Assembly (NCBI GenBank): GCA_963790215.1
Contig: CAWBNS010000010.1
Location: 2,572-66,571, forward strand
DNA length: 64,000 bases
Origin: an uncultured Chlamydiae bacterium
GTDB lineage: Bacteria; Chlamydiota; Chlamydiia; Chlamydiales; JAJFMA01
Reading direction: 5' to 3'
Each line of letters begins with the position of its first letter. Position 1 is the first letter of the stretch. A program made the position numbers and the translations under genes. Under the pieces are notes generated by a model. It was not told the origin of the DNA and ran no database searches. It was given only the letters and a program-made list of their open reading frames with translations. Below, one piece after another: positions 4,160 through 63,749 of the stretch.

Positions 4160-4480
4160 GGACGGAGTGCGCCCTTCCGGGCGCAGGTGATTGTACGACT
4201 GGGTATGGGCAAATCTGGACTAACTGGACGATCTGGACAAGATATACTCAGTCTGCTGCTTGGTGCTGTCAGCCGAAAAAATGTCTGAACAATAGAAAAC
4301 CCTCTACGAGGGTTTTCCTTTCGCAACAAGTTTGCTATCAAATATATGCGCATCAAAAACTTATCTTAGCCTGATGCGTATGCCTACAGCGCCAGTCAAC
4401 AGACTGGGCATATTTTGTCCAGTTAGTCCAGATTTGTCCATACCCAGCCATACAATAACCTGCGTCCGTCAGGACGCCCC
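4160..4480. repeat. composite inverted repeat carrying a half MITE-like element
   Basis: The arms at 4160-4250 and 4405-4480 are mutually complementary (CAAATCTGGAC... / ...GTCCAGATTTG). The interior at 4300-4385 matches the right half of the 16140-16536 element. Confidence 0.6.
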
Positions 4481-4492
4481 CAGCTTGCAACT

Positions 4493-7260: not shown

Positions 7261-8038
7261 AGGAGATGCGTTTTTTTGTTATGGGGTGTAGGAAGCTGAG
7301 TCGCCTTGCGTGAAGCAGTACGCGATTGGCTGGATCGGTCTGTGCGCCATATTTTTTGTCGCCTGCTACGGGATGACCGGCGTCACTGCAGTGTACGCGG
7401 ATTTGGTTCTTTTTTCCTGTATGTAGAGTCAAGCGCAGGTGGGTGTGACGAGGCGGCAGGAGGGCGATGCGCTCAAAGAGGGTCACAGCATGTTCTCCGC
7501 CGGTAGGATCGTCTGTGCTGTGTACATGATAATTGGCGTCTTCGTAGAGGTAGCTCTCCCAACGTCCCCTTGGCTCGGCTAATTTTCCCTCTATGATCGC
7601 TTCGTACTGACGGTCTATTTCATGTTTTTCAAAAATCTTTTTCAAGGCATCGCGCATGGGCTCGCTTAAGGCGAATACCAGTACACCCGAGGTGTCTTGA
7701 TCCAAACGGTGCACAACGTGCACGCGTTTGGGTCGAAAATGGTCCTTTAAGATGGCATGGACGGTCTTTTTGGTTTCAAAATTCGTCGCGACGGAGAGGA
7801 GTCCGCAAGGTTTTTCCACAGCGATGAAGTCGCGGTCTTGATAGAGGATCTTCAATCCGTGCGGCATGCGAACGGGTCGAGACGCCAATGTGATCTGGGC
7901 ATCGTCCGTTATTTCTTCATCAGAGCGTTTGGCTGGAGCATTATTGATGAGGATGCGTCCTTCCTTGATCCATGATCGTAGCGTAGCCTTGGAGCTATCT
8001 GGATAGAGTTCTTCGAGACGAGTGAGTAAGTGTGCCAT
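7196..8038 (-). CDS. RluA-family 23S rRNA pseudouridine synthase with N-terminal S4 domain
   Basis: 280 aa. It has the catalytic motif HRLDQDTSGVLVFA and an S4-like segment LRSWIKEGRILINN. Confidence 0.85.
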   Translation of the reverse strand: MAHLLTRLEELYPDSSKATLRSWIKEGRILINNAPAKRSDEEITDDAQITLASRPVRMPHGLKILYQDRDFIAVEKPCGLLSVATNFETKKTVHAILKDHFRPKRVHVVHRLDQDTSGVLVFALSEPMRDALKKIFEKHEIDRQYEAIIEGKLAEPRGRWESYLYEDANYHVHSTDDPTGGEHAVTLFERIALLPPRHTHLRLTLHTGKKNQIRVHCSDAGHPVAGDKKYGAQTDPANRVLLHARRLSFLHPITKKRISFESTLPESFTKILKRSSHVFK

Positions 8039-8440: not shown

Positions 8441-8700
8441 CCGAGCCCGGGCCTCTCTTAATCCGAGCCCGAGCCCGAAAGTAAGTTTTTGTGATTATGC
8501 AATTGGTACAAGCTCATTACGACAGGAAGACCCTCGTAGAGGGTCTCTGAGTGTAGCCCACCGTGAACCTGCGAGCGTCAGCGAAGACAGGTGTAACGGT
8601 GGGAATAAGTGCACAATAGCCCCCGCACTCTCGAACGAGAGTGCCTCAGCTCGTTAATTGTAAACAGGTCTTATGCTACGGTTTTCGGGCCGGGCTCGTT
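8441..8700. repeat. CCGAGCCCG-type arms enclosing an inner fragment of the MITE-like family
   Basis: 8441-8480 (CCGAGCCCGGGCC...CCGAGCCCGAGCCCGAAA) is complementary to 8681-8700 (TTTCGGGCCGGGCTCG). The segment 8520-8650 matches the core of 16140-16536. Confidence 0.55.
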
Positions 8701-13787: not shown

Positions 13788-15362
13788 ATGGTGGCTAACA
13801 CAATGGAATTGTTAAAAAAATGTATCTACGTTTGTTTATGCGTAGCGAGTTTACTAACAGCAGACGCGCAAATCCCTTACGTAACAGTAAATGTTCCGAT
13901 GCGAGATGGAACACACTTACCGACGGATATCTATCTTTCTGACCTTGAAGCCCGTGACCTTCCTTGCATCCTGGTACGAACTCCTAATGGTCGTAAAAAT
14001 CACTATCGTCAGTTTGCGCATTTAGCCAACCAAGGGTATGCTGTAGCGATCCAAGATACGCGGAGTGTGGTCAACGTCACCATGCCCTATCTCAGTGACC
14101 ATCCCGACGGGCATGATGCCTTGGAGTGGCTGGCCAACAGTGAGTATTGCAATGGAAAAATCGGCACGTCTGGTTTTTCAGCAGTAGGGATAACGTCGCT
14201 CTTGCTCGCTCCAAACGCTCCTTCTCACCTCCAATGCCAGCACATAGAAGTCGCTGCCAGCAGCTTATACGATCACGGTATCTTCATTGGTGGGTGTTTG
14301 CAGAAGAGTCAAGTTGAAGGCTGGTTAGGGCAATACTCCCGAGATCCTGCTGCGCTAGAATTTGTCACCGCGCAAAATCAGTACAATCCGTTCTGGGAAC
14401 AACTAGATACAGTCGCTCAAGCCCATCATGTCAACGTGCCTGCCCTACATCGCGGTGGGTGGTATGACATTTTTATCCAAGGCACCTTAGACTCTTTTGT
14501 ATCCCGCCAGGAAAATGGAAAAGAGGGCGCTCGTGGTACCCAAAAATTGATCATCGGACCTTGGGGTCATTTCTGGCCGGAACAGACTCAATTTGGCGAA
14601 TTTACCTTGCCAGAAATCGCCAAGCAAGCCCCTTATGACGTCAGCACAGCACGTTGGTTTGGACACTATCTAAAAGGCGAACAAAACGGTATCGAGAAGA
14701 TCGCCCCGGTCACCTATTTTGTAATGGGACCCCTAGATGGTTCTGCATCCAGCGGAAACCAATGGCGAACAGCCGATACCTGGCCTATACCTGCGCAAGA
14801 AACAGCTTACTACCTAACACCCGATAAACAGCTCGCCACCAGACAAACGACTGTGCTGGCCACACATGATTTCTCGCATGACCCAGCGAACCCTGTCCCT
14901 ACGATTGGCGGCCGCAATCTCTTTCTTTCAAATGGACCCATGGACCAACGAACCATAGAAGCGCGTGACGATGTAATAGTATTCAGCAGTCCGGTTTTGG
15001 ATAAAGATCTGGAAGTAACCGGACATATCTATGCGAAGCTCTTTGTCTCAGCAGATACCCCTGATGCTGAGGTAGCCGTACGCCTATGCGACGTATACCC
15101 CGATGGCAGAAGTATTTTAATTGCCGACAGCATCGTACGTACTGGCGGTATAGAAGGCCCTCCAGCAATCAATCGCCCGCAAGAAGTTACATTAGATCTT
15201 TGGTCCACCAGTCAGGTATTCGCCAAAGGCCACCGCCTACGCCTAATCGTCAGCGGCTCCAACTACCCGCGTTTCGACATGACCAAACAAACCGTCCACT
15301 CCAAAGTGCACTGCAGCGATAAGTGCCCGTCTAGGCTATTATTGCCTGTCGTAATGGATTGA
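13788..15362 (+). CDS. CocE/NonD (peptidase S15, X-Pro dipeptidyl-peptidase-like) family hydrolase, secreted
   Basis: 524 aa with an N-terminal signal-like segment. It has the alpha/beta-hydrolase nucleophile elbow GTSGFSAVG and a C-terminal beta-rich domain typical of the family. Confidence 0.7.
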   Translation: MVANTMELLKKCIYVCLCVASLLTADAQIPYVTVNVPMRDGTHLPTDIYLSDLEARDLPCILVRTPNGRKNHYRQFAHLANQGYAVAIQDTRSVVNVTMPYLSDHPDGHDALEWLANSEYCNGKIGTSGFSAVGITSLLLAPNAPSHLQCQHIEVAASSLYDHGIFIGGCLQKSQVEGWLGQYSRDPAALEFVTAQNQYNPFWEQLDTVAQAHHVNVPALHRGGWYDIFIQGTLDSFVSRQENGKEGARGTQKLIIGPWGHFWPEQTQFGEFTLPEIAKQAPYDVSTARWFGHYLKGEQNGIEKIAPVTYFVMGPLDGSASSGNQWRTADTWPIPAQETAYYLTPDKQLATRQTTVLATHDFSHDPANPVPTIGGRNLFLSNGPMDQRTIEARDDVIVFSSPVLDKDLEVTGHIYAKLFVSADTPDAEVAVRLCDVYPDGRSILIADSIVRTGGIEGPPAINRPQEVTLDLWSTSQVFAKGHRLRLIVSGSNYPRFDMTKQTVHSKVHCSDKCPSRLLLPVVMD

Positions 15363-15395
15363 TCGGAAGCATCCTGTCGGTTATATACTACTGGT

Positions 15396-16097
15396 ATGAA
15401 AATCGTCATTTTAGCAGCAGGAATAGGAAGTCGTCTCAAAGGTGTAGGCTCGCCTAAAGCACTGACTTTATTATCCAATGGCCAAACAATCCTCGAGTTC
15501 CAGCTGCAACAAATCGCTCGTTACAGCAGTCTCAGTACTGTTCGCGTCGTTGTGGGCTACAAACAAGAATACATCCGCACCGCGTTTCCACAGCTACAAT
15601 TTGTCGAAAATCCTAATTTTGCCTCTCAAAACACCTCCAAAAGCCTGCTTCGCGCCATCGAAGATCTCGATGAAGAGATTCTATGGCTTAATGGCGACGT
15701 GATCTTTCATCACCGCATTCTTCAACCCATCTTCGACCATCGCAACAGCTGCATGATCGTCAATCGCGCCATTGTGGGAGAAGAAGAGGTCAAATACCGC
15801 TCCAACGGCGCCAACCAAATCCTAGAAGTCTCCAAACAAGTAGCCAATCCCGAAGGCGAAGCCGTAGGAATAAACTTTTTCTCTCAAACAGACTTGTTCA
15901 GACTAAAACAGACTCTACAACAGTGTGCAGATAACGACTATTTCGAAAAAGCCATCGAGAGTTGTATTCAAACAGGATGCAAAGTATGGGCCGTTCCTAT
16001 AAACAAATCCGATTGCATAGAGATCGACTTTCCCGAAGATCTGGAAGCGGCTAATGTGTTGATACAGTCACAGTCATGGAATCAAAAAGAAAAATAA
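15396..16097 (+). CDS. sugar/polyol-phosphate nucleotidyltransferase (LicC/TarI-like NTP-transferase fold)
   Basis: 233 aa. It has the N-terminal MKIVILAAGIGSRLK signature loop. Confidence 0.7.
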   Translation: MKIVILAAGIGSRLKGVGSPKALTLLSNGQTILEFQLQQIARYSSLSTVRVVVGYKQEYIRTAFPQLQFVENPNFASQNTSKSLLRAIEDLDEEILWLNGDVIFHHRILQPIFDHRNSCMIVNRAIVGEEEVKYRSNGANQILEVSKQVANPEGEAVGINFFSQTDLFRLKQTLQQCADNDYFEKAIESCIQTGCKVWAVPINKSDCIEIDFPEDLEAANVLIQSQSWNQKEK

Positions 16098-16099
16098 AA

Positions 16100-16765
16100 C
16101 AAGATAAGCAGGATCGCCTTCGGCGGCAGGATGAGCAGGCATACGCATCAGGCTAAGATAAGTTTTTGATGCGCATATATTTGATAGAAAACTTGTTGCG
16201 AAAGGAAAACCCTCTACGAGGGTTTCTGAATGTAGCCCACCGTGAACCTTGCGAGCGAAGCGAAGACAGGTGTAACGGTGGGAAAATGCACCGAAAACCT
16301 ATTGCACCCCCGAAGGGGCGTGCCTCAAGAGATTTTAAATCAACGGGTTGAGGCACTCTCGTTCGAGAGTGCGAACTCTATTTTGCCATTATTCCCACCG
16401 TTACACCTGTCTTCGCTAACGCTCGCAGGTTCACGGTGGGCTACATTCAGAAACCCTCTACGAGGGTTTTCCTTTCGCAACAAGCTTGCTATCAAATATA
16501 TGCGCATCAAAAACTTGTCTTAGCCTGATGCGTATGGGATGAGCAGGATGATATGTTTGTCCGAGTTGATGACAGATCACCTTTTGAGCGAAGCTCAATA
16601 GGCCGGAACCGGCACCTGAGAGCCAGCAAGGGCGATCATGATCTGCATATCTCTGTAACGCCCTTGCTGGCCTCGGTGCCGGTTCCACTCAGCTTGCTTC
16701 GCAAGAACCCGAACAAACATATCATCCTGCTCATCCTGCCGCCAAAGGCGATCATGCTTATCCTG
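16100..16765. repeat. outer palindromic element interrupted by the MITE-like element
   Basis: 16100-16139 (CAAGATAAGCAGGATCGCCTTCGGCGGCAGGATGAGCAGG) pairs with 16726-16765. The segment 16537-16725 is itself palindromic. Confidence 0.65.
16140..16536. mobile_element. about 400 bp MITE-like palindromic element (CATACGCATCAGGC termini), copy 1
   Basis: The termini are CATACGCATCAGGCTAAGATAAG... and ...CTTAGCCTGATGCGTATG, with long complementary arms. An 11 bp direct repeat GGATGAGCAGG flanks it at 16129-16139 and 16537-16547. A second copy lies at 53698-54095. Confidence 0.7.
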
Positions 16766-22149: not shown

Positions 22150-22493
22150 GTATGAAGGATAAAGGATGAAGGCGGAAAAATAAAGACAAAAATTGTGGTC
22201 GTGTAAGTTCGAGAATGGCGCGAAGCGCTCTATAGTTTATAGGTTTTGCAATAAGAAAACCCTCGAAGAGGGTTTTCTTATTGCAAAACCTATAAACTAT
22301 AGTGCCACTAACGTGGCTAAACATCAGCAGCTTAGATGTCCGAATTATAGGGCATTGACTTGTCGTCACACTCCAAAGCGCTTTGCGCAAAAATGGACGA
22401 ACTGAACAAAGGTCATGCCTTAGTCCAGTTCGTCCATTTGGGAAAGAAGTCTAAGTTCTGAAGGACAATTTCATCCTTCATCCTTTATCCTTA
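22150..22493. repeat. IR-bounded intergenic element with internal perfect palindromes
   Basis: The terminal IR GTATGAAGGATAAAGGATGAAGG (22150) pairs with CCTTCATCCTTTATCCTTAC (22474). A 73 bp perfect palindrome lies at 22230-22302 around AAAACCCTCGAAGAGGGTTTT. Confidence 0.7.
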
Positions 22494-42737: not shown

Positions 42738-42838
42738 GAAACAGGCGTACGCATCAGGCTAAGATAAGTTTTTGATATGTACGCAATTGATAGCAAGTTT
42801 GTTGCGACAGGAAAACCATCTTATTCTGATGCATATGC
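42738..42838. repeat. short (about 100 bp) member of the CATACGCATCAG-ended MITE-like family
   Basis: The ends are CGTACGCATCAGGCTAAGATAAG and CTTATTCTGATGCATATGCC. Confidence 0.6.
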
Positions 42839-48533: not shown

Positions 48534-48655
48534 TTTTATCCAATTATATCCAATTTGGTCTGAAAAAACAAGTAAGGTTGTTGCAACAGGAAAACCCTCG
48601 AAGAGGGTTTTCCTGTTGCAACGAATTTACTATCAATTGCATACGCATCAGCCCA

Positions 48656-53304: not shown

Positions 53305-53697
53305 CTAAAGTGTAATAAAGACATAATTTGTCAGGGATACAATTACCCAAGGAGTACTTGGGATTTGGCGCACCAGAGAAGGCTGAGCCGCCGCAGAGGG
53401 CTGAGATTTTCGTTCCGGGTTTGCATCATAAAATTGAGGTACGATGTGCGAGCCAAATACACACCGCCCTTTATCGACAGCCCTATCCCACCAAGACGGT
53501 CCTGAAGGCTCTCGTGATAAAGGCTTAGTCGACCGATTAGCTCGATTTGTGTCATAAAGTGACGAACTACCTGTCCCTGCACCAAGCAAACCATACGCAT
53601 CGAAATGCGTTAGGGGGCTATTTTTGACGTAGGCGTAGAGATTAGGGCCGTCGGCGAAGCCGATGGGGTCGGGTGTTGTCCAACGACCTGTTGCAGG
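53305..53697 (-). pseudogene. orphan Rhs core-end fragment plus short C-terminal region, 5'-truncated
   Basis: It encodes ...ATGRWTTPDPIGFADGPNLYAYVKNSPLTHFDAYGL. About 105 bp (53594-53697) are nearly identical to 59139-59243 of the main Rhs gene. Homology stops exactly at the repeat junction 53697/53698. Confidence 0.8.
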
Positions 53698-54095
53698 CAT
53701 ACGCATCAGGCTAAGATAAGTTTTTGATGCTTATATAATTGATAACAAGTTTGTTGCGAAAGGAAAACCCTCGTAGAGGGTTTCTGAATGTAGCCCACCG
53801 TGAACCTTGCGAGCGAAGCGAAGACAGGTGTAACGGTGGGAAAATGCGCCGAAAACCTATTGCACCCCCGAAGGGGCGTGCCTCAAGCTATTCACAATCA
53901 ACGATCTGAGGCACTTTCGTTCGAGAGTGCGGGGGCTATTGTGCGCTTATTCCCACCGTTACACCTGTCTTCGCTAACGCTCGCAGGTTCACGGTGGGCT
54001 ACATTCAGAAACCCTCTACGAGGGTTTTCCTTTCGCAACAAGCTTGCTATCAAATATATGCGCATCAAAAACTTATCTTAGCCTGATGCGTATGG
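53698..54095. mobile_element. about 400 bp MITE-like palindromic element, copy 2
   Basis: Same termini and arms as 16140-16536. The right flank again begins GGATGAGCAGG. Confidence 0.7.
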
Positions 54096-54247
54096 GATGA
54101 GCAGGATCGTCTGCGGCGGCGGGATGATCGTTGTCCGTATAACCCTCAGAGAGAGTTTATGGAGCTTGGGCATGGATTGGCTTGCAGGCGCTGCTCTTTC
54201 AAATCCACTGCTTCGCAGTAATGACTTACCCTGACTTGGAATCCCTG

Positions 54248-54279
54248 AATCGCACATCACAGCTCCGGCCCCTTTCACT
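54248..54279. repeat. Rhs-locus junction motif, copy
   Basis: AATCGCACATCACAGCTCCGGCCCCTTTCACT. The minus strand reads GGAGCTGTGATGTGCGAT. Confidence 0.7.
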
Positions 54280-54316
54280 ATAGCTCTTTCGCAAAGGGGT
54301 TTCCTGCAAGACTTCA

Positions 54317-54688
54317 TCATTTGTTGTCTGTCTTGATCGAAGTGCCATCCTCCAAAATAATATCTCGACAGACTACTTCTATAATGCTTAAGTTATCGAT
54401 ATCTTTCAAAGAAACAAGGTTGTAAAATTCACTATTCAAAGTTTCAAGTTCTTGTATTTTTTGTCCATGCATATTAGGATCTAAAGGTTTTTTATATAAT
54501 CCCTTAATATAGTCTCCTGGTTGATAATTTAAATATATTAAGTCTTTAAACTTGATGTTTATTTTTTTTCCATTCCATAAAATTATATTTACAGAAAGCA
54601 ATTGGGTTGAATCCTCGAGTCTAAAACTTAATAAAGAGGCGTCGGCTAACGAAAAATCTAAATCCAGGGGAGTCCAATCTTGTTCCAT
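54317..54688 (-). CDS. orphan immunity-like protein
   Basis: 123 aa, AT-rich, with no adjacent intact toxin. Its N-terminal pattern (W.P/D..L.....L) resembles that of the 57971..58327 immunity candidate. Confidence 0.5.
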   Translation of the reverse strand: MEQDWTPLDLDFSLADASLLSFRLEDSTQLLSVNIILWNGKKINIKFKDLIYLNYQPGDYIKGLYKKPLDPNMHGQKIQELETLNSEFYNLVSLKDIDNLSIIEVVCRDIILEDGTSIKTDNK

Positions 54689-54726
54689 TTTTTTTACACC
54701 TTAACTCATCGACGATATGTTCTACT

Positions 54727-54758
54727 AAATCGCATCGCAGCTCCTGCCCCTTTCACTG
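54727..54758. repeat. Rhs-locus junction motif, copy
   Basis: AAATCGCATCGCAGCTCCTGCCCCTTTCACTG. It lies about 40 nt upstream of the 54688 start. Confidence 0.7.
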
Positions 54759-54835
54759 ATTCAGTAAGGATAATCTAAATCAACAAGTTCTTTTTCTCTT
54801 ATCATATCAACTTTATATCCTGCAGAAAATAATAT

Positions 54836-55051
54836 CTACGATTTCTTTATAAGGATAAATATACAAATAAGTATTGTCAACACAGCTTGAATGGTGGTTT
54901 CCGTTAGAGAAATTGATTCTGGTAGGTCGAGTTTTTCAAAATTGACTTCAAAATCATGGGGAACCGAACCGAATAGAAAAAAATCTCCCCATTCGAATTG
55001 TTGAACCGATTTGAATTCATTCACAAACTCAATAGGAATAGCTCCAGTCAA
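54836..55051 (-). CDS. hypothetical small protein (cassette remnant?)
   Basis: 71 aa ORF with a TTG start and a C-terminal hydrophobic tail. It is out of frame with the ORF just upstream. Confidence 0.3.
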   Translation of the reverse strand: MTGAIPIEFVNEFKSVQQFEWGDFFLFGSVPHDFEVNFEKLDLPESISLTETTIQAVLTILICIFILIKKS

Positions 55052-55056
55052 ATCAG

Positions 55057-55251
55057 TTAAAAAACATAATTTATATTGATTGCTTTTAACAGAAGGTTTA
55101 CCAGATCATAAACGGATTTTCCTGGAAGCGCTTCTGGATCTGTAATTACAAGTAGACTCCAGGAGTTAGATTTATTCAATTTTTTAGTCATGCAAATACC
55201 TAAAGAAAACGTCTTCCGAAAAATCTGGGATAGAGTGTGCTCCGCTTTCAA
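55057..55251 (-). CDS. hypothetical small protein (cassette remnant?)
   Basis: 64 aa ORF with an internal ATG at 55188 (MTKKLNKSNSW...). Confidence 0.3.
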   Translation of the reverse strand: MKAEHTLSQIFRKTFSLGICMTKKLNKSNSWSLLVITDPEALPGKSVYDLVNLLLKAININYVF

Positions 55252-55410
55252 CGCTATTAGAGAGAGAGAGCGGGGTGAAAATGGGGACTAAAGTGATCAT
55301 GTCTTCCGTGAGATGTCACATCTGTTCACCCCTTAAACACGCCTCTATTGTCGAATGTAGATCCTTGTATATATGATCTCTACCCACCGCCCTCTCCATT
55401 TGGAATTTCT

Positions 55411-55653
55411 TCAGAGAACGGTTTTCGCGCGCGCGCGATATCGTTTTGAAGAGGCTCCAAAATTTTTAAAGTTTTCTATTGCTTCGTTGAGGCTTTCTGG
55501 ATTTGCGCCACCGTGATAGTTTGAGTCGTGAAATTGAGCCTCATCGTCCTCCCAACCACAGACGTTACAAATTTCAAACGTCCCAGGGGGGCAATCAGAT
55601 AAAGTTAAGAAACCACAGCAAGGGCATGGATATCCTTTTTTACTTAAACTCAT
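55411..55653 (-). CDS. CPCC-family cysteine-rich protein; immunity candidate by position
   Basis: MSLSKKGYPCPCCGFLTL...FEICNVCGWEDDEAQ matches the Cys_rich_CPCC pattern. Its ATG lies 2 nt after the TGA of the degraded toxin frame upstream. Confidence 0.7.
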   Translation of the reverse strand: MSLSKKGYPCPCCGFLTLSDCPPGTFEICNVCGWEDDEAQFHDSNYHGGANPESLNEAIENFKNFGASSKRYRARAKTVL

Positions 55654-55655
55654 TA

Positions 55656-56266
55656 TCAATACCTAGTTTCGAAATAATGCAGACCATCGGTTGGTTTAAA
55701 GAAGGTTTTTGGAACTCCATCAGAGGTGTAAACGCCAAATTGGTTACTTTCCACTTCATAAAGGATAATATCACCAGTTGGTCGGACTTTAACAGAGGTT
55801 GCATTAGAACGAGAATGAAAAAACTCGCGAGCTTTCTCAACTTATTGTTTTGCATTATATAATTCTGGAAATTCTGCAGAATGGCTTTTCCAATGTTGGT
55901 ACGCGTTTTGAAGAGGTTTTTTTTCTTGGTTGCATTCCAGATGGGCTTACCTATATCACTTTTTGCTATGTTTGTTTCGCAAACGGTTGCATTTATGGTG
56001 GTTTTAAGAATTGGTGTTGCTGTTCGACTGCTTTGAATCGCAGCAGCACCCCCCATCGTGGCAACCATGCTGAGACCGCCATCAATGAGATGAGCGGCTT
56101 CCGGTGGAATGCCAGCTGTCTGGAGACCTTGAGAAGTCATTGTCTCCTTTGCTTCACCTGAAAATAGTGTTTTCATTCCTGCAACGAAGGACCATCGATG
56201 AATAAATCGGTTTCCTGCTGGACGAATTCTCCTGTCACTACATTGACGCAGCCATGCCCAGTGCAA
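55656..56266 (-). pseudogene. degraded orphan toxin module: Rhs N-terminal fragment fused to a distinct C-terminal toxin-like domain
   Basis: 56180-56266 duplicates 63470-63545 of the main gene and encodes HGCVNVVTGEFVQQETDLFIDGPSL. Downstream, a coherent domain (NAYQHWKSHSAEFPELYNAKQ*VEKAREFFHSRSNATSVKVRPTGDIILYEVESNQFGVYTSDGVPKTFFKPTDGLHYFETRY) is reachable only by a frame change at an 8-nt homopolymer (55917-55924). It also contains an in-frame TAA (55843-55845). Confidence 0.7.
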
Positions 56267-56267
56267 A

Positions 56268-56486
56268 TCATTTGATTATCCAGGAACAGCTAGTCGTATA
56301 ATATTGAATATCTGTGAGATAGAATATCCTCGCCAGCCGTCCTCTCTGTACACGACAAAAATTGATCTAGTAAGGTTGTTGCGACAGGAAACCCTCTTCG
56401 AGGGTTTTCTGTCACAACCAACTTTATCAATTATATAAACATCAAAAACTTATCTTAGCCTGATGCGTATGGGTCAGTCACCTGCG
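56268..56486. mobile_element. ISAs1-family remnants with a MITE-like insertion
   Basis: 56268-56345 matches the transposase 5' region 32392-32480. 56474-56486 (GGTCAGTCACCTG) matches the ISAs1 right IR. The MITE-like arm (AAACCCTCTTCGAGGGTTTT ... GCCTGATGCGTATG) lies between them. Confidence 0.7.
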
Positions 56487-56500
56487 ACCATATGTTCTGT

Positions 56501-56535
56501 CAAATCGCACATCGCAGCTCCGGCCCGTTTACTCA
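56501..56535. repeat. Rhs-locus junction motif, copy
   Basis: TCAAATCGCACATCGCAGCTCCGGCCCGTTTACTC. The minus strand GGAGCTGCGATG opens a 12-codon ORF that runs into the IS remnant. Confidence 0.7.
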
Positions 56536-56544
56536 TCCTTTAGA

Positions 56545-56767
56545 ATTAGTTTTTGTGTTCGGGCATCGAAGTTTTGGATGGTTAAAGGATCATAAATGCA
56601 CAAGGTTATTTCCTTTTATAATCTTCATCGGAAAGATGAATGTGGTCGCCTGTTGGGATCTTCAAGAAGTTGTTCAGCATAGCCAATCAATTGTCGCATT
56701 TCATCTGTTGTTAACAGTAACATAATGCTACCCAGTTTTTTATCAAACTCGTCATCTAAAATTCGCA
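56545..56767 (-). pseudogene. small immunity-like gene, apparently frameshifted
   Basis: MRILDDEFDKKLGSIMLLLTTDEMRQLIGYAEQLLEDPN continues in another frame as GDHIHLSDEDYKRK. Both pieces fall below the ORF-track cutoff. Confidence 0.3.
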
Positions 56768-56789
56768 TACTCTTCCTTATTCAATCATG

Positions 56790-56809
56790 TGTGAAAGGGG
56801 CTGAAGCTA
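56790..56809. repeat. Rhs-locus junction motif, partial, inverted orientation
   Basis: GTGAAAGGGGCTGAAGCTAC. Confidence 0.5.
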
Positions 56810-56832
56810 CTTCAATGCCTTCGATGACCCCT

Positions 56833-57180
56833 TCATCTTAACGGAAAGAGATCAAGCAACTCTCCTCTTAGTATTGGATTGATAAGATCAGGTTTTGAAG
56901 CCATAATTTGATGAAAAACTATCCTCTGCACAACTGGAATTAAAGAGTCGAATTGAATTGGGTCAAACCAATCCAATCCGATGCAAATTTCTCCAATAGA
57001 TTCGGCACAGTTGTCCATAATAAATTTATCTTCTGTGGGATCAGAAGCTATTTTTATAAGAGCGTTTAACGCTCGCAAATCCAAATATCTACCTAAGTCG
57101 ATTGCAGCATCGTCTCTTTCGTCTTCTCGCGCAGTTTTATCTAACAAGATATTTATAAGTAATTCGATCTGATCCTTCAT
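56833..57180 (-). CDS. immunity candidate (helical, HEAT-like)
   Basis: 115 aa. Its ATG at 57180 directly abuts the TAG (57181-57183) of the toxin-like frame upstream. Confidence 0.6.
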   Translation of the reverse strand: MKDQIELLINILLDKTAREDERDDAAIDLGRYLDLRALNALIKIASDPTEDKFIMDNCAESIGEICIGLDWFDPIQFDSLIPVVQRIVFHQIMASKPDLINPILRGELLDLFPLR

Positions 57181-57558
57181 CTAATTCCTTAACAAATAAT
57201 TAGCTTCTAGAGGCAGATGAGTTCCAATTTCTTTGCCACCTGTTTGTCCACTAAAAGGATTAATATAACTTTGACCACTCGAATCATGGTATAGGCGAGA
57301 GTCAAACCTCGGCATTCCGCTTTTTTCATGAAGCCCTAAACGATAACTGCCTTCCGGTTTTACGACCAATCTCCATTCAAACTTATCGCTGCTATATACT
57401 CCCCATCGCTCAGGTTTTCCTAAAGAATTGGGTTCCTTAATCCACCCCTTACTTTTAGCCCAGCTTCTTAGAATTCGTATATTGGTTTGACCAGTTTCAG
57501 AAAGATTTTTAGCGGCATAATGAAAGCGATTTAGGTTGTTAGCTACCTGAGACTCTTT
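57181..57558 (-). CDS. toxin-like C-terminal domain lacking its own canonical start
   Basis: The frame is open from 57558: KESQVANNLNRFHYAAKNLSETGQTNIRILRSWAKSKGWIKEPNSLGKPERWGVYSSDKFEWRLVVKPEGSYRLGLHEKSGMPRFDSRLYHDSSGQSYINPFSGQTGGKEIGTHLPLEANYLLRN. The only start-like codon is the TTG at 57369. The frame is the same as ORF 57562..57870. Confidence 0.45.
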   Translation of the reverse strand, partial: KESQVANNLNRFHYAAKNLSETGQTNIRILRSWAKSKGWIKEPNSLGKPERWGVYSSDKFEWRLVVKPEGSYRLGLHEKSGMPRFDSRLYHDSSGQSYINPFSGQTGGKEIGTHLPLEANYLLRN

Positions 57559-57561
57559 CTA

Positions 57562-57870
57562 TCATCTTAGGTCTGGAAGTTTAAGTTTTTCGAGGCAATC
57601 GTGGATTCCTTTTGTAGCTTCCACAATAAAAAATTGGCCTTGTTGGTCTATGTCAACGTAACCTCGGTCAAGCATCACGCTATATACTTCTTCTAAAATA
57701 CAGACGAACTCATGAACCCGCTGTTTCCATCCTTGCGGCGCATTTTCGATGGCGTTCAGCAAAAAATCTACGTCACCAATGAAGCTGCTGAGTTTTAACT
57801 CTCCGCGTTCGAACGCAGCAAGTTGAAGCTTCATTTTTCTCAATTGACGTGCATCGGACTTAGAAATCAT
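57562..57870 (-). CDS. small helical protein (immunity-like, or N-terminal module of the downstream toxin-like domain)
   Basis: 102 aa. It ends in TGA followed directly by TAG, after which the same frame continues open. Confidence 0.5.
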   Translation of the reverse strand: MISKSDARQLRKMKLQLAAFERGELKLSSFIGDVDFLLNAIENAPQGWKQRVHEFVCILEEVYSVMLDRGYVDIDQQGQFFIVEATKGIHDCLEKLKLPDLR

Positions 57871-57887
57871 TTGACCCCCGGAATAAC

Positions 57888-57955
57888 AGTGAAAGGGGCC
57901 GGAGCTGCGATGTGCGATACGATAAAAAAGAGGCTGCAGCTCCGGCCCCTTCCAT
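57888..57955. repeat. Rhs-locus junction motif, inverted pair forming a hairpin
   Basis: AGTGAAAGGGGCCGGAGCTGCGATGTGCGAT (57888-57918) pairs with GCTGCAGCTCCGGCCCCTTCCAT (57933-57955). The stem AGGGGCCGGAGCTGC / GCAGCTCCGGCCCCT is 15 bp. Confidence 0.75.
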
Positions 57956-57970
57956 TGGCCCGGGCCTCAT

Positions 57971-58327
57971 TCAATCAATTTGAAATCGTTTAGCAAAAAT
58001 GTTTATGATTCCTCCTGTGGAATTAGTTTCCAATCGAAAGTGGACGAGACTACCTATTTCGGCGGACCTCCACTTATCAATAATAAGCTGTAATTCGGGG
58101 GACTTGTCAAAACACTGAGCTACCAGTATCGATTCCGACGCGACCACCCCAAAATTCATATTCAGCTGCAACGCGTAACAATCCAAAAATAGGACGGTAG
58201 ATACCACTTCTTCCTTAGGCCACTGGACTAATAGTTCGACGGTGTCAACTATACCAGGATTTCTCCTATCTATTTGTAGAGAAACAAGAGCGGCGTCATG
58301 CCAGGGTAATTCATTAAAGGAATTCAT
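57971..58327 (-). CDS. cognate immunity candidate of the main Rhs toxin
   Basis: 118 aa. Its start overlaps the last 14 nt of the Rhs gene. Confidence 0.65.
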   Translation of the reverse strand: MNSFNELPWHDAALVSLQIDRRNPGIVDTVELLVQWPKEEVVSTVLFLDCYALQLNMNFGVVASESILVAQCFDKSPELQLIIDKWRSAEIGSLVHFRLETNSTGGIINIFAKRFQID

Positions 58328-60485
58328 GGAAAAATCCGGGGTTTTTCATTCCTGGTTCGGGACTGTAATGAGTGCCTTTACCGTCGAGATGATAGTGGGA
58401 GTTATTTGGTCCTTTCATTCCTGGCGGTGTTGCAGGATCTATTCTTAATTTTTCCACAAATTTACCGTTGATGTATTCCCCATAACTCCCGCTTCGATGG
58501 GGATTTTCTACATAGTTTCTTGGGATTTGATACTTAGACTGTGCTGGAAGAGCAACACCGTCTGGAGTTACATTAATTTGTTCTGAGCTTGGATTACAAA
58601 CATCTTTTACACCTTGCTCCTCCTTCCCAAAAATCCTTCTTGCAACTCTAACTACTTTATCTATTCCTCGAACAGCTCTGGGAAGGATTTTGGCAGTAAA
58701 GGTTGCTGCAGCTTTTTCTTGACCAACAGCGGGGGTAAAAAGAGCTCCAATAGTAAGCCCCCAACCCACGAGACAATTGGTGAAACGATAACTCCGGTCA
58801 TTCGGATTAACACCATAATCACTCTCGACCTGTTGCCTAATGGTGCTAAGATTATTGACTCTAAATTGCTCAGACTCCTCTATGTTGTGCAGGACTCGGT
58901 CCAGACTAAGGGAATTAATGCTAAGGCTTGTTTGGATGTCGTAATACGCGTTAGTTGCGAATTCTCTGCAAGCACGAGTACAGGCAGCGCTGACCGAGTT
59001 GAAAAATTCTCCTTTCCTCGCGCCTGCTTCCGAACCACTTGACCTTCTAGTCTCTCTGTGCTGCGACCTATGAGCTTGATTCGTTTCATAAAGTGAGGAG
59101 TTACCTGTTCCTGTTTCGTATAGTCCATACGCATCGAAATGCGTGAGAGGGTTATTTTTGACGTAGGCGTAGAGATTAGGGCCGTCGGCGAAGCCGATGG
59201 GGTCGGGTGTTGTCCAACGACCTGTTGCAGGGTCATAGTAACGTCTCCCAAAATAAACCCAGCCACTTTCGGGATCGTAGCGCTTGCTGGAAAAATGCCA
59301 CGGATTGGTAGTGCCAGACCCATAACGCTGTTGCTCACCAAAAGCGCTGTAGACATAGCCTTCGGCAAATTGTTTGGCTTGTAGGTCTATGAGTACAGAA
59401 ACGTGACCGCAATGATCATGAATCGGAATGTAAATGCGATTCTCTAGCTCAAGAGCCACTGCCGCACCGATCTCAGCACCTTTACCACGACCGAGAATGC
59501 GCAGCTGCACAATTTTGCCTCGCTCATCAACCATGCCAATCTCGTTTTGGTCGATGTAGAGATAACGCTCAACTGATCGAGGCGAGTGTTTGGCAATGCG
59601 TCGATTAAACGCATCGTATTGGTAGGTGTATTCATTGCCATTGCGGCAGAGAGTAGTAAGACGGCCTAGCGCATCATACGTGTATTCAGAATGATCTGTA
59701 GGACTATCCTGGGCAATCAGATTTCCGCGTTTGTCGTAGGTGTAGGTCGTTTCTTCGAGTTGAAGCAACTGGTTCAGATGGTTGACTGTGTGCTCTTTAT
59801 TGTCGCGCAGGCGTCGGTTGTAGAGAGAATCATAAGTATATTCATGTGCATCAAATCCAGTGATCGTTTCGGATTTGAGTTGATAGAGGGAATCGTAACT
59901 ATACATGCAGTGTGTGAGACGCTCTGGGTCTTGACGACTTTTGTGGAGAAGGTTGCCGACGGCATCGTAGCCAATTTCTGGAATGGTTTCACTAAAGTAG
60001 GTAGATTCGATCGTGCATGGGCGATTTAATAGATCCCAAGAATAGGAAATTTTGCCGATCGGAGTATTCTCTTCGAGAAGTACTCCAGAGAGGTCATAGG
60101 AAGAGTACTGATGCTCATAGCCATTACGCGATACGGTTTTGAGATGCCCTGCGGTATAGGTGTAAACAATGTGAGTGGCATCTGGAAGCGTAATTTGAAG
60201 GGGTCTGTTTAAGGCATCGTACGAATACTCGAGCGATAGGCCATTGGCTAGCGTCTCGCAGATTATGCGGTTGTTGTCATCGTAGAGACGTTGAGTCATG
60301 GTTTGAGTAAGCGCATCTGTCACGTTGAGCACGTTGTTGTTTAGATCGTACTCGTAGGTATAGTCGAAGGAATTGTCTGAAGCATAGTAGCGCTGCAGAC
60401 GACCCAGGCCATCGGTAGGTATGCAGAAGAATGGTGCCATCTGGGAGGCAAATCGACTCTTTCTGGCCGAGTGAATTAAAGCCAT
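58314..60485 (-). CDS. Rhs/YD-repeat toxin, C-terminal part (repeats, core end, C-terminal toxin domain)
   Basis: It has YD repeats (YTYDALGRL, YQYDAFNRR). The core end is YFGRRYYDPATGRWTTPDPIGFADGPNLYAYVKNNPLTHFDAYGL. A roughly 270 aa variable tail ends ...RIDPATPPGMKGPNNSHYHLDGKGTHYSP.... The real junction with the upstream part lies near 60415. Confidence 0.85.
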   Translation of the reverse strand: MALIHSARKSRFASQMAPFFCIPTDGLGRLQRYYASDNSFDYTYEYDLNNNVLNVTDALTQTMTQRLYDDNNRIICETLANGLSLEYSYDALNRPLQITLPDATHIVYTYTAGHLKTVSRNGYEHQYSSYDLSGVLLEENTPIGKISYSWDLLNRPCTIESTYFSETIPEIGYDAVGNLLHKSRQDPERLTHCMYSYDSLYQLKSETITGFDAHEYTYDSLYNRRLRDNKEHTVNHLNQLLQLEETTYTYDKRGNLIAQDSPTDHSEYTYDALGRLTTLCRNGNEYTYQYDAFNRRIAKHSPRSVERYLYIDQNEIGMVDERGKIVQLRILGRGKGAEIGAAVALELENRIYIPIHDHCGHVSVLIDLQAKQFAEGYVYSAFGEQQRYGSGTTNPWHFSSKRYDPESGWVYFGRRYYDPATGRWTTPDPIGFADGPNLYAYVKNNPLTHFDAYGLYETGTGNSSLYETNQAHRSQHRETRRSSGSEAGARKGEFFNSVSAACTRACREFATNAYYDIQTSLSINSLSLDRVLHNIEESEQFRVNNLSTIRQQVESDYGVNPNDRSYRFTNCLVGWGLTIGALFTPAVGQEKAAATFTAKILPRAVRGIDKVVRVARRIFGKEEQGVKDVCNPSSEQINVTPDGVALPAQSKYQIPRNYVENPHRSGSYGEYINGKFVEKLRIDPATPPGMKGPNNSHYHLDGKGTHYSPEPGMKNPGFFHEFL

Positions 60486-63400
60486 AGGCAGTGGTTTTTT
60501 GCTCAGGTGTGTCTTTAGCTTCGGTTAGTGTCGTTACGCGTCCCATGGCGTCGTAAACCCACTCCGTGACGATTTTGCGGTCGGGTAGGTTGGGTGCCAT
60601 GGCTGTGTCGCATTGGCCAGTCTTATGGCCAGCTAAATCATAGGTAAATGTGCTATGTGCACGGGTGATTCCCAAGATGTCTTTGCGAAGCTGCTCTGTA
60701 ACCTGACCAACAGAGTTTTGCGTGGTGATGGTTTGATTGCCTAAAGCGTCCGTCACGGTTGTGGTGAGAATGCCGTGAGTCAAGTCTTCGTCATATTCGG
60801 TAACAGTGATATTCCCTAAAGCATCCGTAACACGAACGGGACGATGGCGGCTATCGTAATCGGTCTGTGTTCTAGCAGTGCCCTGACTGGTTTCTGAGAG
60901 GTGTAAGCAGCAGTTACCACATTGGTCATAGGTAAATTTGTTGGAAGAGATGAGCGATGATTGTTTAGTGATGAGCGAATATTCTTCGACACGTTCTTCG
61001 GTGATACGGTTTAGAAGGTCATATTCCCAGCAGGTGGCACGAGCTGTGGTGTCATCAATATGTTCGAGAGAGCAGCATTTGCGTCCCAAAGTATCGTAAG
61101 AAAGGGTAGTACGTTGAACGCCTTTGCTTGTTTCGATGAGGCGACCTGCACCATCATAGTTGTACTTGGTCTTTATGCCATTGGCATCGACTTCTTTGAT
61201 GATGCGTGTGCCTTTGTACTTGGCACGGGTACAATAGCTGAGATTCTCTCCAGCAATCTGCTTGACAATGGGTCTTTGACAGGAGTCGTAATAGAGGGTG
61301 GTGACGACCTTGTTGGTCGCTGTATGTTGGGTCAATAGGCCATTGCCACCATAGAGAGAGTGTTCCTCTGATCCATCTGGATAGGTAACCAAAATGGGTT
61401 GTCCACGCGCGGTATATGTAGTGCGTGTAATGCCTCCTAACACATCTTGAACCAGGATTTTATTACCTGCGAGGTCGTAGTCAAACTTCTCGATGCCGCG
61501 GATATTATTTACCTGCGGATGTGTAACCGAGGTGATTTCACCCAGCTGGTTATGCTCGTAGAGTGTTTCATTTCCAAACGCGTCTACAGTAGCGGTTTTG
61601 CGATTGCTTAGATCATAGCGATGTGTGGTTTCGTAGCGAGCATGTGGATGGAATTCGGTCTCTTTAATTAGGCGGTTGCGTTTGTCATAGAGGTATTCGA
61701 AGGAGATCTTTTGCTCCACGAGTGTGGTGAGAATGCGATTGCCATTTGCATCATAAGCATGTGTTGTTTTGTCACCTATCGGGTTAGTCTCTTCGAGGAC
61801 TCTACCTGCGGCATCATAAACACGATGCAGGGAATAGCGAAGAGCGCCTTTGGCATCATGGTGATCTTCTTGGATAGGATAGCCATGGTCGTTGTATTGG
61901 TAATGAATCGTGCGTAGCGGGATTTCTCGACCAGATCCGCATTCGCAATATTTTTCCCAACGGGTTAGCGGTTTGCCGAAAGCAGGTGAAAGGGGCGTGG
62001 TGATAGGATCAATTTCGGTTATGGTACGTACAGAGACGTCGGTGAGGTCATTTGAATCACTTCCACTGCCATCATCGACAATATGACGGATTTGATTGGC
62101 GAATTTGTCGTACTCGAAAAATTCACGCTCAATATGTCGAGGGCGACCTTGTAGTTTTGCAATTAGGAGATTGGTGCCTTCTTTATAGCAATACTTAGTG
62201 TAGGAGCCATCATCGCCTTTTTCTTCGGTGATGACATTGAATACGGGGAGGTAGCTACGCTCTGTGGCATATCCTTGTACATGGCCCTCTGGTATTCCAT
62301 TTGCAGTCAACGCAAATTCGGATGTGCCTTGTCCTGTCAGATTGCCGAAAAGGGTTTCACGGGTGATGTTACCGAAGTCATCGTAGATCAAATATTTACT
62401 ATTCAAAGCCTTTCCAGAGGCATCACAGAGGGCTTTAGCCACAAGGTTGCCTGCGGATTTTCCGTCAGTGCCCCAATAGTATTTACTCTGGTGGTGCAGC
62501 TTCAGCTGCGAGAAATGTTGAATGTGAGAAATGCGTCTTTGCGGGTTAATTATGTATCGCGTTATTTCGTCCGAGGCTCCGACGACCTTGCAATAGTTGC
62601 CGCCATAGCTAAAGGTGGCCAAGGGTTTTTCTGAATCAGGTTGATATAAAGCACGCACACGACCTGTTTCATGATACTTGATGCCTACTTCTCTGCCATC
62701 CGGACGGTTTATACTAGTCACTTTTCCTAATGTCGGAATCGTAACCCGGTCTTCAATATAGCGGTATTCAGTTTTAGGGAGGTGGTCTGCTTCTACTTGA
62801 ACGAGACGCCAAAAGGCTTCATATCCGGTCCTATTTTTATCCGTAGTGTACTGAATGGTTTGGCCATTATTGCCTTCGACAATGATAGCTCGGTTGGTAG
62901 GTGTGACGCTGTACGAAGCGATGGGTGTTGTTTCTTCCGCATCTGTCAGCCAGACTTTTCGCAACGTGTCTTTGTCATAGTCATAGAAGAGTTTGGTTCC
63001 GTTGGGTCGGATTTCTTGCGATAGGTTCCAGCATCTTGCTCTTACGCAGTTGTAGATGCGTTTGGTTCCACAGCCAAGCGTGACGGTAAAGGTGCCTTCT
63101 GTACCACTCTTATAATTACGATGCAGAGGAGTGACGTTATGCAGGCTCGTCGCGCCGCTGATGCCCCATGGAGAGTAATTAGTATAACCACGGCTTAGAG
63201 TAGAAGAGCGAACGGAGTATTCCTGACCATCTAAGCCAGAAGGTTTGCCGTTGTGTCGTCCTTGATAGATGAGAGGAACTCCCTCCCTCTCTTCTATCGA
63301 AATGACTGTGGTACCTCCGTCGACCTTATTGCCTTCGTCATCTTTGCCTCGTTTCTTAAACTCATCGAGGAATCTAATTTGTCTTGCAATAGACCAGGTG

Positions 63401-63639
63401 AAGCCGGCACCAAGGGCAGAGTGTACATTGCTATTCCCACTATCGTAAACTCTGCTATGGACTAACGAAGGACCATCGATGAATAAATCGGTTTCCTGCT
63501 GAACGAATTCCCCTGTCACTACATTGACGCAGCCATGCACCAGTGCAAGAACCTCAGCCTCTGGAGCTAAGCGTGAATCGTGCGCGTGGGCCGTGGTGAT
63601 CGCTAGAAATAGAAAGATTTGAAAAACAAATATTTTCAT
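60277..63639 (-). CDS. Rhs/YD-repeat toxin, N-terminal part (signal peptide plus repeat shell)
   Basis: It has the signal peptide MKIFVFQIFLFLAITTAHA and the shell start VNVVTGEFVQQETDLFIDGPSL, followed by dozens of YD-type repeats. The frame is lost near 60415, inside HTY-DGLGRL. Confidence 0.85.
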   Translation of the reverse strand: MKIFVFQIFLFLAITTAHAHDSRLAPEAEVLALVHGCVNVVTGEFVQQETDLFIDGPSLVHSRVYDSGNSNVHSALGAGFTWSIARQIRFLDEFKKRGKDDEGNKVDGGTTVISIEEREGVPLIYQGRHNGKPSGLDGQEYSVRSSTLSRGYTNYSPWGISGATSLHNVTPLHRNYKSGTEGTFTVTLGCGTKRIYNCVRARCWNLSQEIRPNGTKLFYDYDKDTLRKVWLTDAEETTPIASYSVTPTNRAIIVEGNNGQTIQYTTDKNRTGYEAFWRLVQVEADHLPKTEYRYIEDRVTIPTLGKVTSINRPDGREVGIKYHETGRVRALYQPDSEKPLATFSYGGNYCKVVGASDEITRYIINPQRRISHIQHFSQLKLHHQSKYYWGTDGKSAGNLVAKALCDASGKALNSKYLIYDDFGNITRETLFGNLTGQGTSEFALTANGIPEGHVQGYATERSYLPVFNVITEEKGDDGSYTKYCYKEGTNLLIAKLQGRPRHIEREFFEYDKFANQIRHIVDDGSGSDSNDLTDVSVRTITEIDPITTPLSPAFGKPLTRWEKYCECGSGREIPLRTIHYQYNDHGYPIQEDHHDAKGALRYSLHRVYDAAGRVLEETNPIGDKTTHAYDANGNRILTTLVEQKISFEYLYDKRNRLIKETEFHPHARYETTHRYDLSNRKTATVDAFGNETLYEHNQLGEITSVTHPQVNNIRGIEKFDYDLAGNKILVQDVLGGITRTTYTARGQPILVTYPDGSEEHSLYGGNGLLTQHTATNKVVTTLYYDSCQRPIVKQIAGENLSYCTRAKYKGTRIIKEVDANGIKTKYNYDGAGRLIETSKGVQRTTLSYDTLGRKCCSLEHIDDTTARATCWEYDLLNRITEERVEEYSLITKQSSLISSNKFTYDQCGNCCLHLSETSQGTARTQTDYDSRHRPVRVTDALGNITVTEYDEDLTHGILTTTVTDALGNQTITTQNSVGQVTEQLRKDILGITRAHSTFTYDLAGHKTGQCDTAMAPNLPDRKIVTEWVYDAMGRVTTLTEAKDTPEQKTTAYGFNSLGQKESICLPDGTILLHTYRWPGSSAALLCFRQFLRLYLRVRSKQQRAQRDRCAYSNHDSTSLR

Positions 63640-63725
63640 AGCTGTTTATGATAAGACAAACCTGATAACAAGTGGAAGGAAAAAATGAAAAAAACGAGCT
63701 TCCGTCCTTTCATCGAATCGCACAC
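63636..63725 (-). promoter_or_regulatory. candidate leader uORF coupled to the Rhs start
   Basis: GGAG-N5-GTG at 63725 opens 29 codons ((M)CDSMKGRKLVFFIFSFHLLSGLSYHKQL). Its TGA (63636-63638) overlaps the Rhs ATG (63637-63639) as ATGA. The Rhs ATG has no Shine-Dalgarno-like sequence of its own. Confidence 0.35.
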
Positions 63726-63749
63726 CGTAGCTCCGGCCCCTTTTTCATG
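63712..63749. repeat. Rhs-locus junction motif, head-of-locus copy
   Basis: ATCGAATCGCACACCGTAGCTCCGGCCCCTTTTTCATG. It abuts the trpS stop. Confidence 0.7.

Follow-up and report, generated by a model that had tools for sequence, protein, structure and literature searches.

We analysed a 64-kb stretch of DNA from an uncultured Chlamydiae bacterium (contig CAWBNS010000010.1; the whole stretch is called the window here), in which a 10-kb Rhs toxin locus (54247-63743) carries seven copies or part-copies of a short repeat, GTGAAAGGGGCCGGAGCTGCGATGTGCGAT as read on the minus strand, the strand that codes for Rhs; the remaining 53 kb hold none. An earlier note on the window had singled out this repeat as a locus-specific junction motif and a portable translation start. 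Judging from related genomes, we consider it probable that a small element with a Y1 transposase supplied the motif, as its terminal inverted repeat, and that the copies in the window are selfish relics in a permissive, recombining toxin array.

The Rhs locus and its repeat copies

The locus runs from Rhs through a 118-aa open reading frame (ORF) and AT-rich orphan or decayed cassettes to a uvrB-like gene from 53259. The GC content of the orphan region is 37-42%, against 47-50% in the flanks. The genes and gene remnants are given below; labels such as L007 denote loci from other genomes, fetched by the motif or by protein homology.

58314-63639, minus strand: main Rhs toxin gene (RHS_repeat 8e-39, DUF6531, Rhs_assc_core 2e-23)
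57971-58327, minus strand: immunity-type ORF of 118 aa, overlapping the end of the Rhs toxin gene and assigned by position
56532-56768, minus strand: disrupted immunity gene with in-frame stops (tblastn with the L007 immunity protein, 1258-1497: 46% identity, E 2e-16)
56183-56257, minus strand: Rhs N-terminus remnant of 75 nt, 97% identical to 63464-63538
54317-54688, minus strand: immunity-like ORF of 123 aa, between two repeat copies in direct orientation
53591-53697, minus strand: Rhs core-end remnant of 107 nt, 97% identical to 59125-59231

The main Rhs gene consists of two ORFs (63639-60277 and 60485-58314) with an overlap of 209 nt; its core ends with DAYGL at ~59125, and the C-terminal toxin tip follows. 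The 118-aa ORF had no family match, and its sole record outside the window is one 1.6-kb contig, while the homologue search with the 123-aa ORF returned nothing but itself. The homologue of the disrupted gene in L007 is the immunity gene after an Rhs toxin. The N-terminus remnant is fused to a decayed toxin tip (to ~55650) that weakly matches the L033 toxin tip, and the core-end remnant heads the last orphan toxin tip (ORF 53305-53706). The earlier note had set the motif apart from the usual orphan signature of retained Rhs core; two cassettes do carry such signatures, both at 97% identity. The motif has no copy within the main Rhs ORFs and so is not itself retained Rhs core. Among the ORFs of the locus no recombinase or transposase domain was found, and with it no recombinase of the integron kind; an Rfam search of the whole window returned three tRNAs only. 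An 82-aa Cys_rich_CPCC protein (55411-55659; PF14206, 7e-25) follows the decayed toxin tip immediately, where an immunity gene would be expected. Frameshifts occur at 60277-60485, 56532-56768 and 55650-56190, some of them at A-runs, and are either real decay or long-read homopolymer errors; the Rhs genes of L033, L035, L036 and L039 are likewise split, each elsewhere.

The repeat copies, with E values from a profile built solely from copies in other genomes and then run on the window, are as follows.

63712-63743, minus strand: solo copy at the locus head (E 1.2e-7), with GTG in place of ATG
57936-57957, minus strand: partial copy (outer 22 nt), 21 nt past the stop codon of the immunity gene 57971-58327
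57887-57919, plus strand: full copy, the inverted arm of a 70-bp doublet (E 1.5e-9)
56791-56808, plus strand: partial copy (outer 18 nt, GTGAAAGGGGCTGAAGCT), its outer end towards the disrupted immunity gene
56501-56530, minus strand: solo copy (E 7.8e-10), starting 2 nt past the stop codon of the disrupted immunity gene
54727-54758, minus strand: solo copy (E 8.6e-5) with a C>A change and a 2-nt deletion
54247-54278, minus strand: solo copy (E 5.9e-10), 44 nt past the stop codon of ORF 54317-54688

A scan with a 15-nt core, allowing two mismatches or fewer, gave six matches, all between 54258 and 63740, against 0.09 from shuffles; the seventh, partial copy at 56791-56808 and the 22-bp hairpin were added by a repeat finder. 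The profile found these sites again, six with E values of 6e-10 to 9e-5 and one at 0.018; recovered were 54247-54275, 54727-54753, 56502-56530, 57892-57918, 57936-57951 and 63712-63743, with no further site in the 64 kb below E = 1. Short seeds, for example GGCCGGAGC and TGTGCGAT, were also restricted to the Rhs locus within the window. The seven positions noted earlier are thereby confirmed, each to within 1-2 nt, and the observation that the motif occurs in this locus alone within the 64 kb holds.

The head copy lies with its outer end 4 nt past the stop codon of the gene upstream and its inner end 74 nt upstream of the Rhs ATG (63639); in L033, the closest Rhs homologue, the inner part of the repeat stands at the same relative upstream position. 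The copy at 57887-57919 is identical at 27 of 27 positions (57892-57918) to the consensus from other genomes, and such identity to the ends of intact elements in other species fits either constraint by the transposase or recent transfer. With the head copy, which lies 5.8 kb away, it shows 89% complementarity over 36 nt. The disrupted immunity gene has a repeat copy on each side, both with their outer ends towards it. The earlier note had seen two copies facing a small gene at 56545-56767; the arrangement is real, and the gene is this disrupted minus-strand immunity gene, 56532-56768. Nearby, 56826-56834 could be a 9-nt remnant of an opposing arm (GAAGGGGTC), overlapping the stop codon of ORF 56833-57180, an assignment of low confidence. 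The 56501-56530 copy is followed by part of another dispersed element, unrelated to the motif, and after that by the Rhs N-terminus remnant. We considered this copy and the remnant as a segmental duplicate of the locus head and rejected the idea, as only the motif and ~83 coding nt align. The 54727-54758 copy lies 38 nt upstream of ORF 54317-54688 and has ~25 further inner nt in common with the 56501 copy.

Single units folded no better than shuffles (z +0.2 to +1.9). In contrast, the doublet of the window (57880-57965) gave a DNA fold of -21.8 kcal/mol (z -5.25), and the hairpin pairing of two neighbouring copies reported earlier was borne out, 57887-57908 pairing with 57936-57957 over 22 bp at 91% complementarity. 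Doublets are also present in L006, L012, L016, L018 and L035, with folds of -29.8 kcal/mol in L006, -46.1 in L012 and -33.6 in L018. Since inverted doublets fold and single units do not, we divide the copies of the window into a doublet (57887-57957), four solo copies and a single truncated one. We tried the classical repetitive extragenic palindromic (REP) sequence as an identity for the unit and rejected it: the unit is non-palindromic, has neither a GTAG nor a CGTC tag and, singly, has no structure of its own.

Such a hairpin raises the possibility that the repeat has been co-opted by the Rhs operon, as an RNA hairpin that stabilises or attenuates the transcript behind the first immunity gene, or as a site for a host regulator or for the helix-turn-helix of the transposase. 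The doublet of the window would form a stable hairpin, those of L035 and L018 lie just after immunity genes, and a plausible protein-binding site is present as tandem GCGAT-GT-GCGAT in the repeat and TTCGAT-CT-TTCGAT in the sister repeat of L037 described below. Classical REP hairpins stabilise the mRNA upstream of them. This role is named in PMC3733652. The solo copies, however, are unstructured, and the copies are unequally decayed. A promoter and terminator scan of the window placed none of 14 terminator-like sites, nor any promoter-like site, at a copy, and its totals were within the shuffled expectation. We therefore regard co-option as quite improbable, though the doublet, lying downstream of the first immunity gene, may happen to serve there as a hairpin in RNA or DNA.

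Complete elements and their transposase in related Chlamydiae

An exact-pattern scan with GGGCCGGAGCTNNNNTGTGCGAT, one genome per species, gave 15 loci in four Chlamydiae metagenome-assembled genomes, together with two matches outside the Chlamydiae (Sorangium and Kiloniellaceae) that we judged to be chance. A metagenome scan returned chiefly the same K940 assembly again, and the motif was found neither in the plasmid collection nor in viral contigs, the L033 variant included. The complete element measures ~1.1 kb and consists of two inverted (A/T)AAGGGGCCGGAGCTGCGATGTGCGATTCTCTG copies around one gene; the motif of the window is identical over 27 nt. In L008 the inverted copies (3372-3398, plus strand, and 4439-4465, minus strand) match at 97% over 75 nt, and their outer ends are 1,094 bp apart. 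They bracket a single ORF of 324 aa (3407-4381), which matched Pfam Y1_Tnp (7.5e-11) and Bac_DnaA_C (5e-10), DnaA domain IV in the PDB (1.7e-6), and NCBIfam REP_Tyr_transpos (4e-17; at 62 bits, under the model cut-off of 80). Its sequence shows GNHIHLM and RYIHLNPVEAGL. The same transposase gene begins ~60 nt inside the repeat in L007, L010, L020 and L022. At least two of these genes stand in different contexts of one assembly, so the element is multicopy there. The transposase family comprised 926 matches at E < 1e-10, some of them named at source as RayT, REP-associated tyrosine transposase (RAYT) or putative transposase; many of its members sit on contigs of ~1.05-1.1 kb, the size of the element, as expected of a multicopy element. 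Relative to the intact ends, the copies in the window are without the inner TCTCTG and belong to a GCGATTCG sub-type common to L033.

Two more distant transposases of the family, 44% (L037) and 39% (L038) identical, have inverted repeats of their own that begin with GGGG. The ends of the L037 element (3851-3916 and 4940-4967) carry GGGGCCGGCCCTTTCGATCTTTCGATTC, a 28-nt exact inverted repeat; those of the L038 element (3900-3945 and 4975-5010) read CTAGGGGTCAGAC... The L037 repeat follows the plan GGGGCCGG-CCCT-TTCGATCTTTCGATTC, which is that of the motif: GGGGCCGG, 4 nt and a tandem xCGAT. This shared plan hints that the tandem xCGAT is a putative binding site of the helix-turn-helix domain. 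The earlier note had offered a recombination site or a protein-binding site as readings of the motif. With a probable origin as the recognition sequence of a recombinase, here the transposase, that idea points in the right direction; specificity for this locus or for toxins did not hold.

By its predicted domains the transposase is a RAYT-like Y1 (HUH) enzyme with a helix-turn-helix of the DnaA domain IV type, and this makes the enzyme a TIRYT and the element a TIRtron. TIRtrons are TIRYT genes together with their families of terminal inverted repeats (TIRs) (Di Nocera et al. 2013, PMC3733652), and the Y1 subclass 2.1.2 with a Bac_DnaA_C-like C-terminus is the equivalent of TIRYT (Quentin et al. 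2018, PMC6006769); in the literature searched, the terms TIRYT and TIRtron were used only in these two papers, both of them comparative genomics. The element resembles published TIRtrons in its RAYT-like Y1/HUH transposase, its C-terminal DnaA-type helix-turn-helix and its long inverted repeats beginning with GGGG, and also in having repeats elsewhere in the genome that are single, dimeric or clustered, as shown in four related metagenome-assembled genomes. It differs in its host lineage, the environmental Chlamydiae, in being multicopy in at least one genome, in its nested truncated outer ends, in the concentration of its copies in Rhs arrays, and in the repeat sequence, which is GGGGCCGG as compared with GGGGWSAS. 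The latter consensus was published for many, though not all, TIRs (PMC3733652). When we tested it, the window-type repeat, starting GGGGCCGG, matched at six of eight positions and the L038 repeat, GGGGTCAG, in full; the L037 repeat starts GGGGCCGG. The repeat sequence and the environmental Chlamydiae lineage are new for TIRYT repeats, a known and barely studied kind. An unexplained junction motif thus becomes an identifiable object, a TIRYT-type transposon end, and the TIRYT class would be active, or recently so, in environmental Chlamydiae.

The system has in common with the REP/REPIN-RAYT systems (Nunvar 2010; Bertels & Rainey 2011, PMC3116915) that short extragenic repeats go with a Y1 transposase, that inverted doublets form hairpins, that singlets arise by decay and that copies lie near gene ends. 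Unlike those repeats, the unit is non-palindromic and has no GTAG/CGTC tag, its observed copy number is low, and the transposase gene is not single-copy.

Nested arrays of ever shorter outer parts of the repeat (AAAAGGGGCCGG, ...AGCTG, ...GCGAT) lie outside each full inverted repeat. We saw them in L008 (3332-3398 and, mirrored, 4439-4530), L003, L004, L006 (4701-4788), L007, L009, L010, L012, L020 and L036 (1180-1229). Such arrays may record repeated insertion into earlier short doublets.

The intact elements also bear on the proposal that the motif is a portable Shine-Dalgarno sequence and start codon, or a shared translational leader, that launches whatever follows. The string GGAG-N5-ATG is indeed present in four copies. 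In the intact elements (L007, L010, L008, L020 and L022) the ATG of the repeat opens a 20-codon ORF (MCDSLLCKIYIWGILLFHRR and variants) that always stops at a TGA within the ribosome-binding site AGGAGGTGA, 4-5 nt before the ATG of the transposase, and at the locus head of the window a 29-codon ORF, which starts with GTG, ends in a TGA that overlaps the ATG of Rhs. The placement of the 20-codon ORF could be translational coupling or coincidence. Close copies of it differ non-synonymously, which gives no sign of selection on the peptide. As to the peptides reported earlier, MCDS (54257), MCDL (56512) and MCDT (57910, plus strand) are read as described, whereas the head copy gives VCDS (GTG at 63725) and the 54735 copy MRFS, the latter because a 2-nt deletion destroys ATG-TGCGAT. 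The ORFs of the window opened in this way comprise 59, 9, 12, 29 and 27 codons and have nothing in common after the first three to four residues, those encoded by the repeat. One copy has lost the frame, one has GTG, three are without an ATG, and one runs antisense into an immunity gene; the L037 sister repeat has neither GGAG nor ATG. Real genes downstream of copies use their own start codons. The MCDS-type beginnings are conserved because the DNA repeat itself is conserved, and GGAG-N5-ATG would be a by-product of the repeat sequence. A portable start module is thus very improbable, and short ORFs of the MCDS type should not be annotated as genes.

Association with Rhs junctions and dispersal elsewhere

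The repeat is not specific to toxin loci, contrary to what had been proposed from the window. In related genomes it flanks the Y1 transposase gene and many unrelated genes, among them those for sulfatases, peptide deformylase, adenylate kinase and MCRA-family, F-box, PPR and beta-helix proteins, and the hrcA-grpE-dnaK region. The copies occupy spacers, mostly within 0-45 nt of a preceding stop codon, and have the orientation of the upstream gene. Their 5' flanks (TGAAA, TAAAA, TAATT) resemble stop codons; a stop-like target, together with purifying selection, could explain the closeness to stop codons, and we offer this as speculation.

Among ~22 independent sites selected by the motif, three abut Rhs sequence. 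In L007 an Rhs immunity gene is followed after 470 nt by an intact element, and the first immunity stop codon has a decayed copy directly behind it, in the place equivalent to that of the 56501 copy in the window. In L018 the 5' border of an orphan core fragment coincides exactly with a doublet, and behind the immunity stop codon comes ATTGGGGCCG. In L024 the repeat and 15 nt of the element interior are joined directly to an Rhs core fragment. Three of 22 has a probability of 0.009 if Rhs loci make up 2% of the genome, and of 0.09 if they make up 5%. Of six loci retrieved solely through homology to Rhs proteins, four contain the repeat (L033, L035, L036 and L039). L033 has at least eight copies of a one-base variant, all of them within the orphan region, and its remaining 20 kb have none. 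They lie mostly inside miniature elements of ~240-270 bp (14058-14450, 15190-15420 and 15620-15895), the interior of which is a long inverted repeat of GGACGAACTGGACAATCTGGAC-type units; the three miniature-element copies flank an orphan EndoU-type toxin tip and its immunity gene. In L035 a doublet lies 14 nt past the immunity stop codon, and in the paralogous L036 and L039 repeat clusters lie 370-400 nt upstream of the Rhs start. The placement at cassette boundaries and at the Rhs head that had been described for the window is therefore upheld, and it recurs in L018, L024, L033, L035, L036 and L039.

In the window and the loci selected by Rhs, 10 of 11 repeat clusters fell inside Rhs loci, which are 34.5% of the sequence examined in this count (binomial P = 1.8e-4). 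The repeat appears clearly over-represented at toxin junctions, though not specific to them. The earlier note had set a generic, dispersed repeat lacking enrichment at toxin or immunity junctions against its own proposal: the repeat is dispersed in the related genomes, while enrichment at Rhs junctions is seen, significantly only with the discovery window. Copies stand at the edges of Rhs segments that are truncated, duplicated or relocated.

These edges could mean that the repeats are working junction sites, which give the 3' (and head) homology or the cleavage points for exchanging or moving Rhs units or toxin-immunity cassettes. The agent would be the Y1 transposase, mobilising segments bounded by repeats, or homologous recombination with Rhs core on one side and the repeat on the other. 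Several placements speak for such a role. The repeat is 0-21 nt from immunity stop codons in the window, L018, L033 and L035, and the head of Rhs has it in the window, in L036 and L039 and, as its inner part only, in L033. Upstream of Rhs, the window and L033 have different neighbouring genes, yet they are homologous from within the repeat onwards; for L036 and L039, the repeat cluster is where their shared unit starts. Within the window, the copies at the head and at 57887-57919 are paired in the correct inverted orientation around Rhs and its immunity gene, and ORF 54317-54688 is enclosed by direct copies. Counted over the window and the loci selected by Rhs, clusters inside Rhs loci outnumber those outside by 10 to 1. 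Yet the majority of copies are truncated or mutated, as relics would be; homologue searches found no identical cassette in two repeat-bounded contexts; in L036 and L039 the other end of the unit carries no repeat; members of the family are often seen next to unrelated genes; and the enrichment is not significant once the discovery window is left out. Mobile-element debris in toxin orphan arrays, moreover, is already known (PMC3150448). A working junction role is accordingly rather unlikely, and we consider it unlikely as well that the Y1-family repeats are an integron-like shuffling device that moves or exchanges Rhs units and cassettes in environmental Chlamydiae.

On the more probable reading, that the copies are relics of transposon ends, the locus would have arisen as follows. 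The transposase would act on single-stranded DNA as IS200/IS605-type Y1 enzymes do, and would spread ends and doublets. Insertions would survive mainly in dispensable spacers, of which an AT-rich, decaying orphan array supplies many. Recombination, deletion and duplication between copies would then leave cassettes, and whole Rhs units, with repeats at their edges. Several points weigh against this account. A tblastn search found no Y1 transposase gene of this family in the 64-kb window, the sole part of the source genome examined. The motif is confined to the Rhs locus within the window while a 397-bp element is spread throughout it, so passive accumulation alone may not explain the concentration; the 10 of 11 clusters in Rhs loci become five of six (P = 0.10) when the discovery window is omitted. 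The head copy finds its best match in the inverted arm of the doublet, and vice versa; the two have the orientation of transposon ends around Rhs and the immunity gene, and this pair would also fit a cargo-carrying unit. Finally, we know of no TIRYT that has been studied biochemically.

The locus otherwise resembles the orphan arrays of rhs and cdiA (Poole et al. 2011, PMC3150448; Koskiniemi et al. 2014, PMC3967940), in which a main gene and its immunity gene are followed by displaced, decayed cassettes; some cassettes of the window retain core, and debris of mobile elements is interspersed. In the published arrays this debris is of insertion-sequence (IS) and transposon genes, whereas here it is the inverted repeat of a Y1 transposase, recurring at junctions in several genomes. 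An association of TIRYT repeats with Rhs arrays was not found in the literature searched. The recurrent placement at Rhs heads and boundaries in several genomes is a testable lead on the rearrangement of toxin arrays, and if the repeats mediate such rearrangement, and do not merely mark it, HUH transposases would be tied to the way in which polymorphic toxins diversify.

The Correia elements of Neisseria are likewise short, non-autonomous elements at gene ends in intergenic spacers, with hairpins possible in transcripts. Here the cognate enzyme is a Y1 transposase, and no role as promoter, as terminator or in processing is claimed for the repeat.

A second dispersed repeat and other mobile elements

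The dispersed element referred to above is unrelated to the motif, and one of its copies is present in the locus.

53698-54094, no strand assigned: near-palindromic miniature element of 397 bp, with 110-nt inverted ends that are 95% complementary

It contains an internal hairpin, GAAACCCTC-N3-GAGGGTTTC, and has the tips GCCTGATGCGTATG. Further copies lie at 16140-16536 (93%), 8482-8667, 4297-4382, 42748-42823, 48571-48650 and 22246-22275, and 56388-56473 is a single end. The element is therefore dispersed over the whole window, unlike the GTGAAAGGGGCCGGAGCTGCGATGTGCGAT motif. It had no Rfam match, and none of the fetched loci contained a copy. The copy at 53698-54094 exactly abuts the Rhs core remnant. 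We considered an inversion system in which the GATGCGTATGG tips of the palindrome would derive from the DAYG-coding end of the Rhs core, and rejected it on finding the same tips in the dispersed copies elsewhere in the window.

Other mobile elements were seen in the fetched loci. In L039 a group II intron reverse transcriptase (4170-4922) lies between two Rhs units, in L034 a DDE transposase (848-1873) splits an Rhs gene, and in L038 copies of IS66 (1-1035 and 5944-7596) stand around the TIRYT gene.

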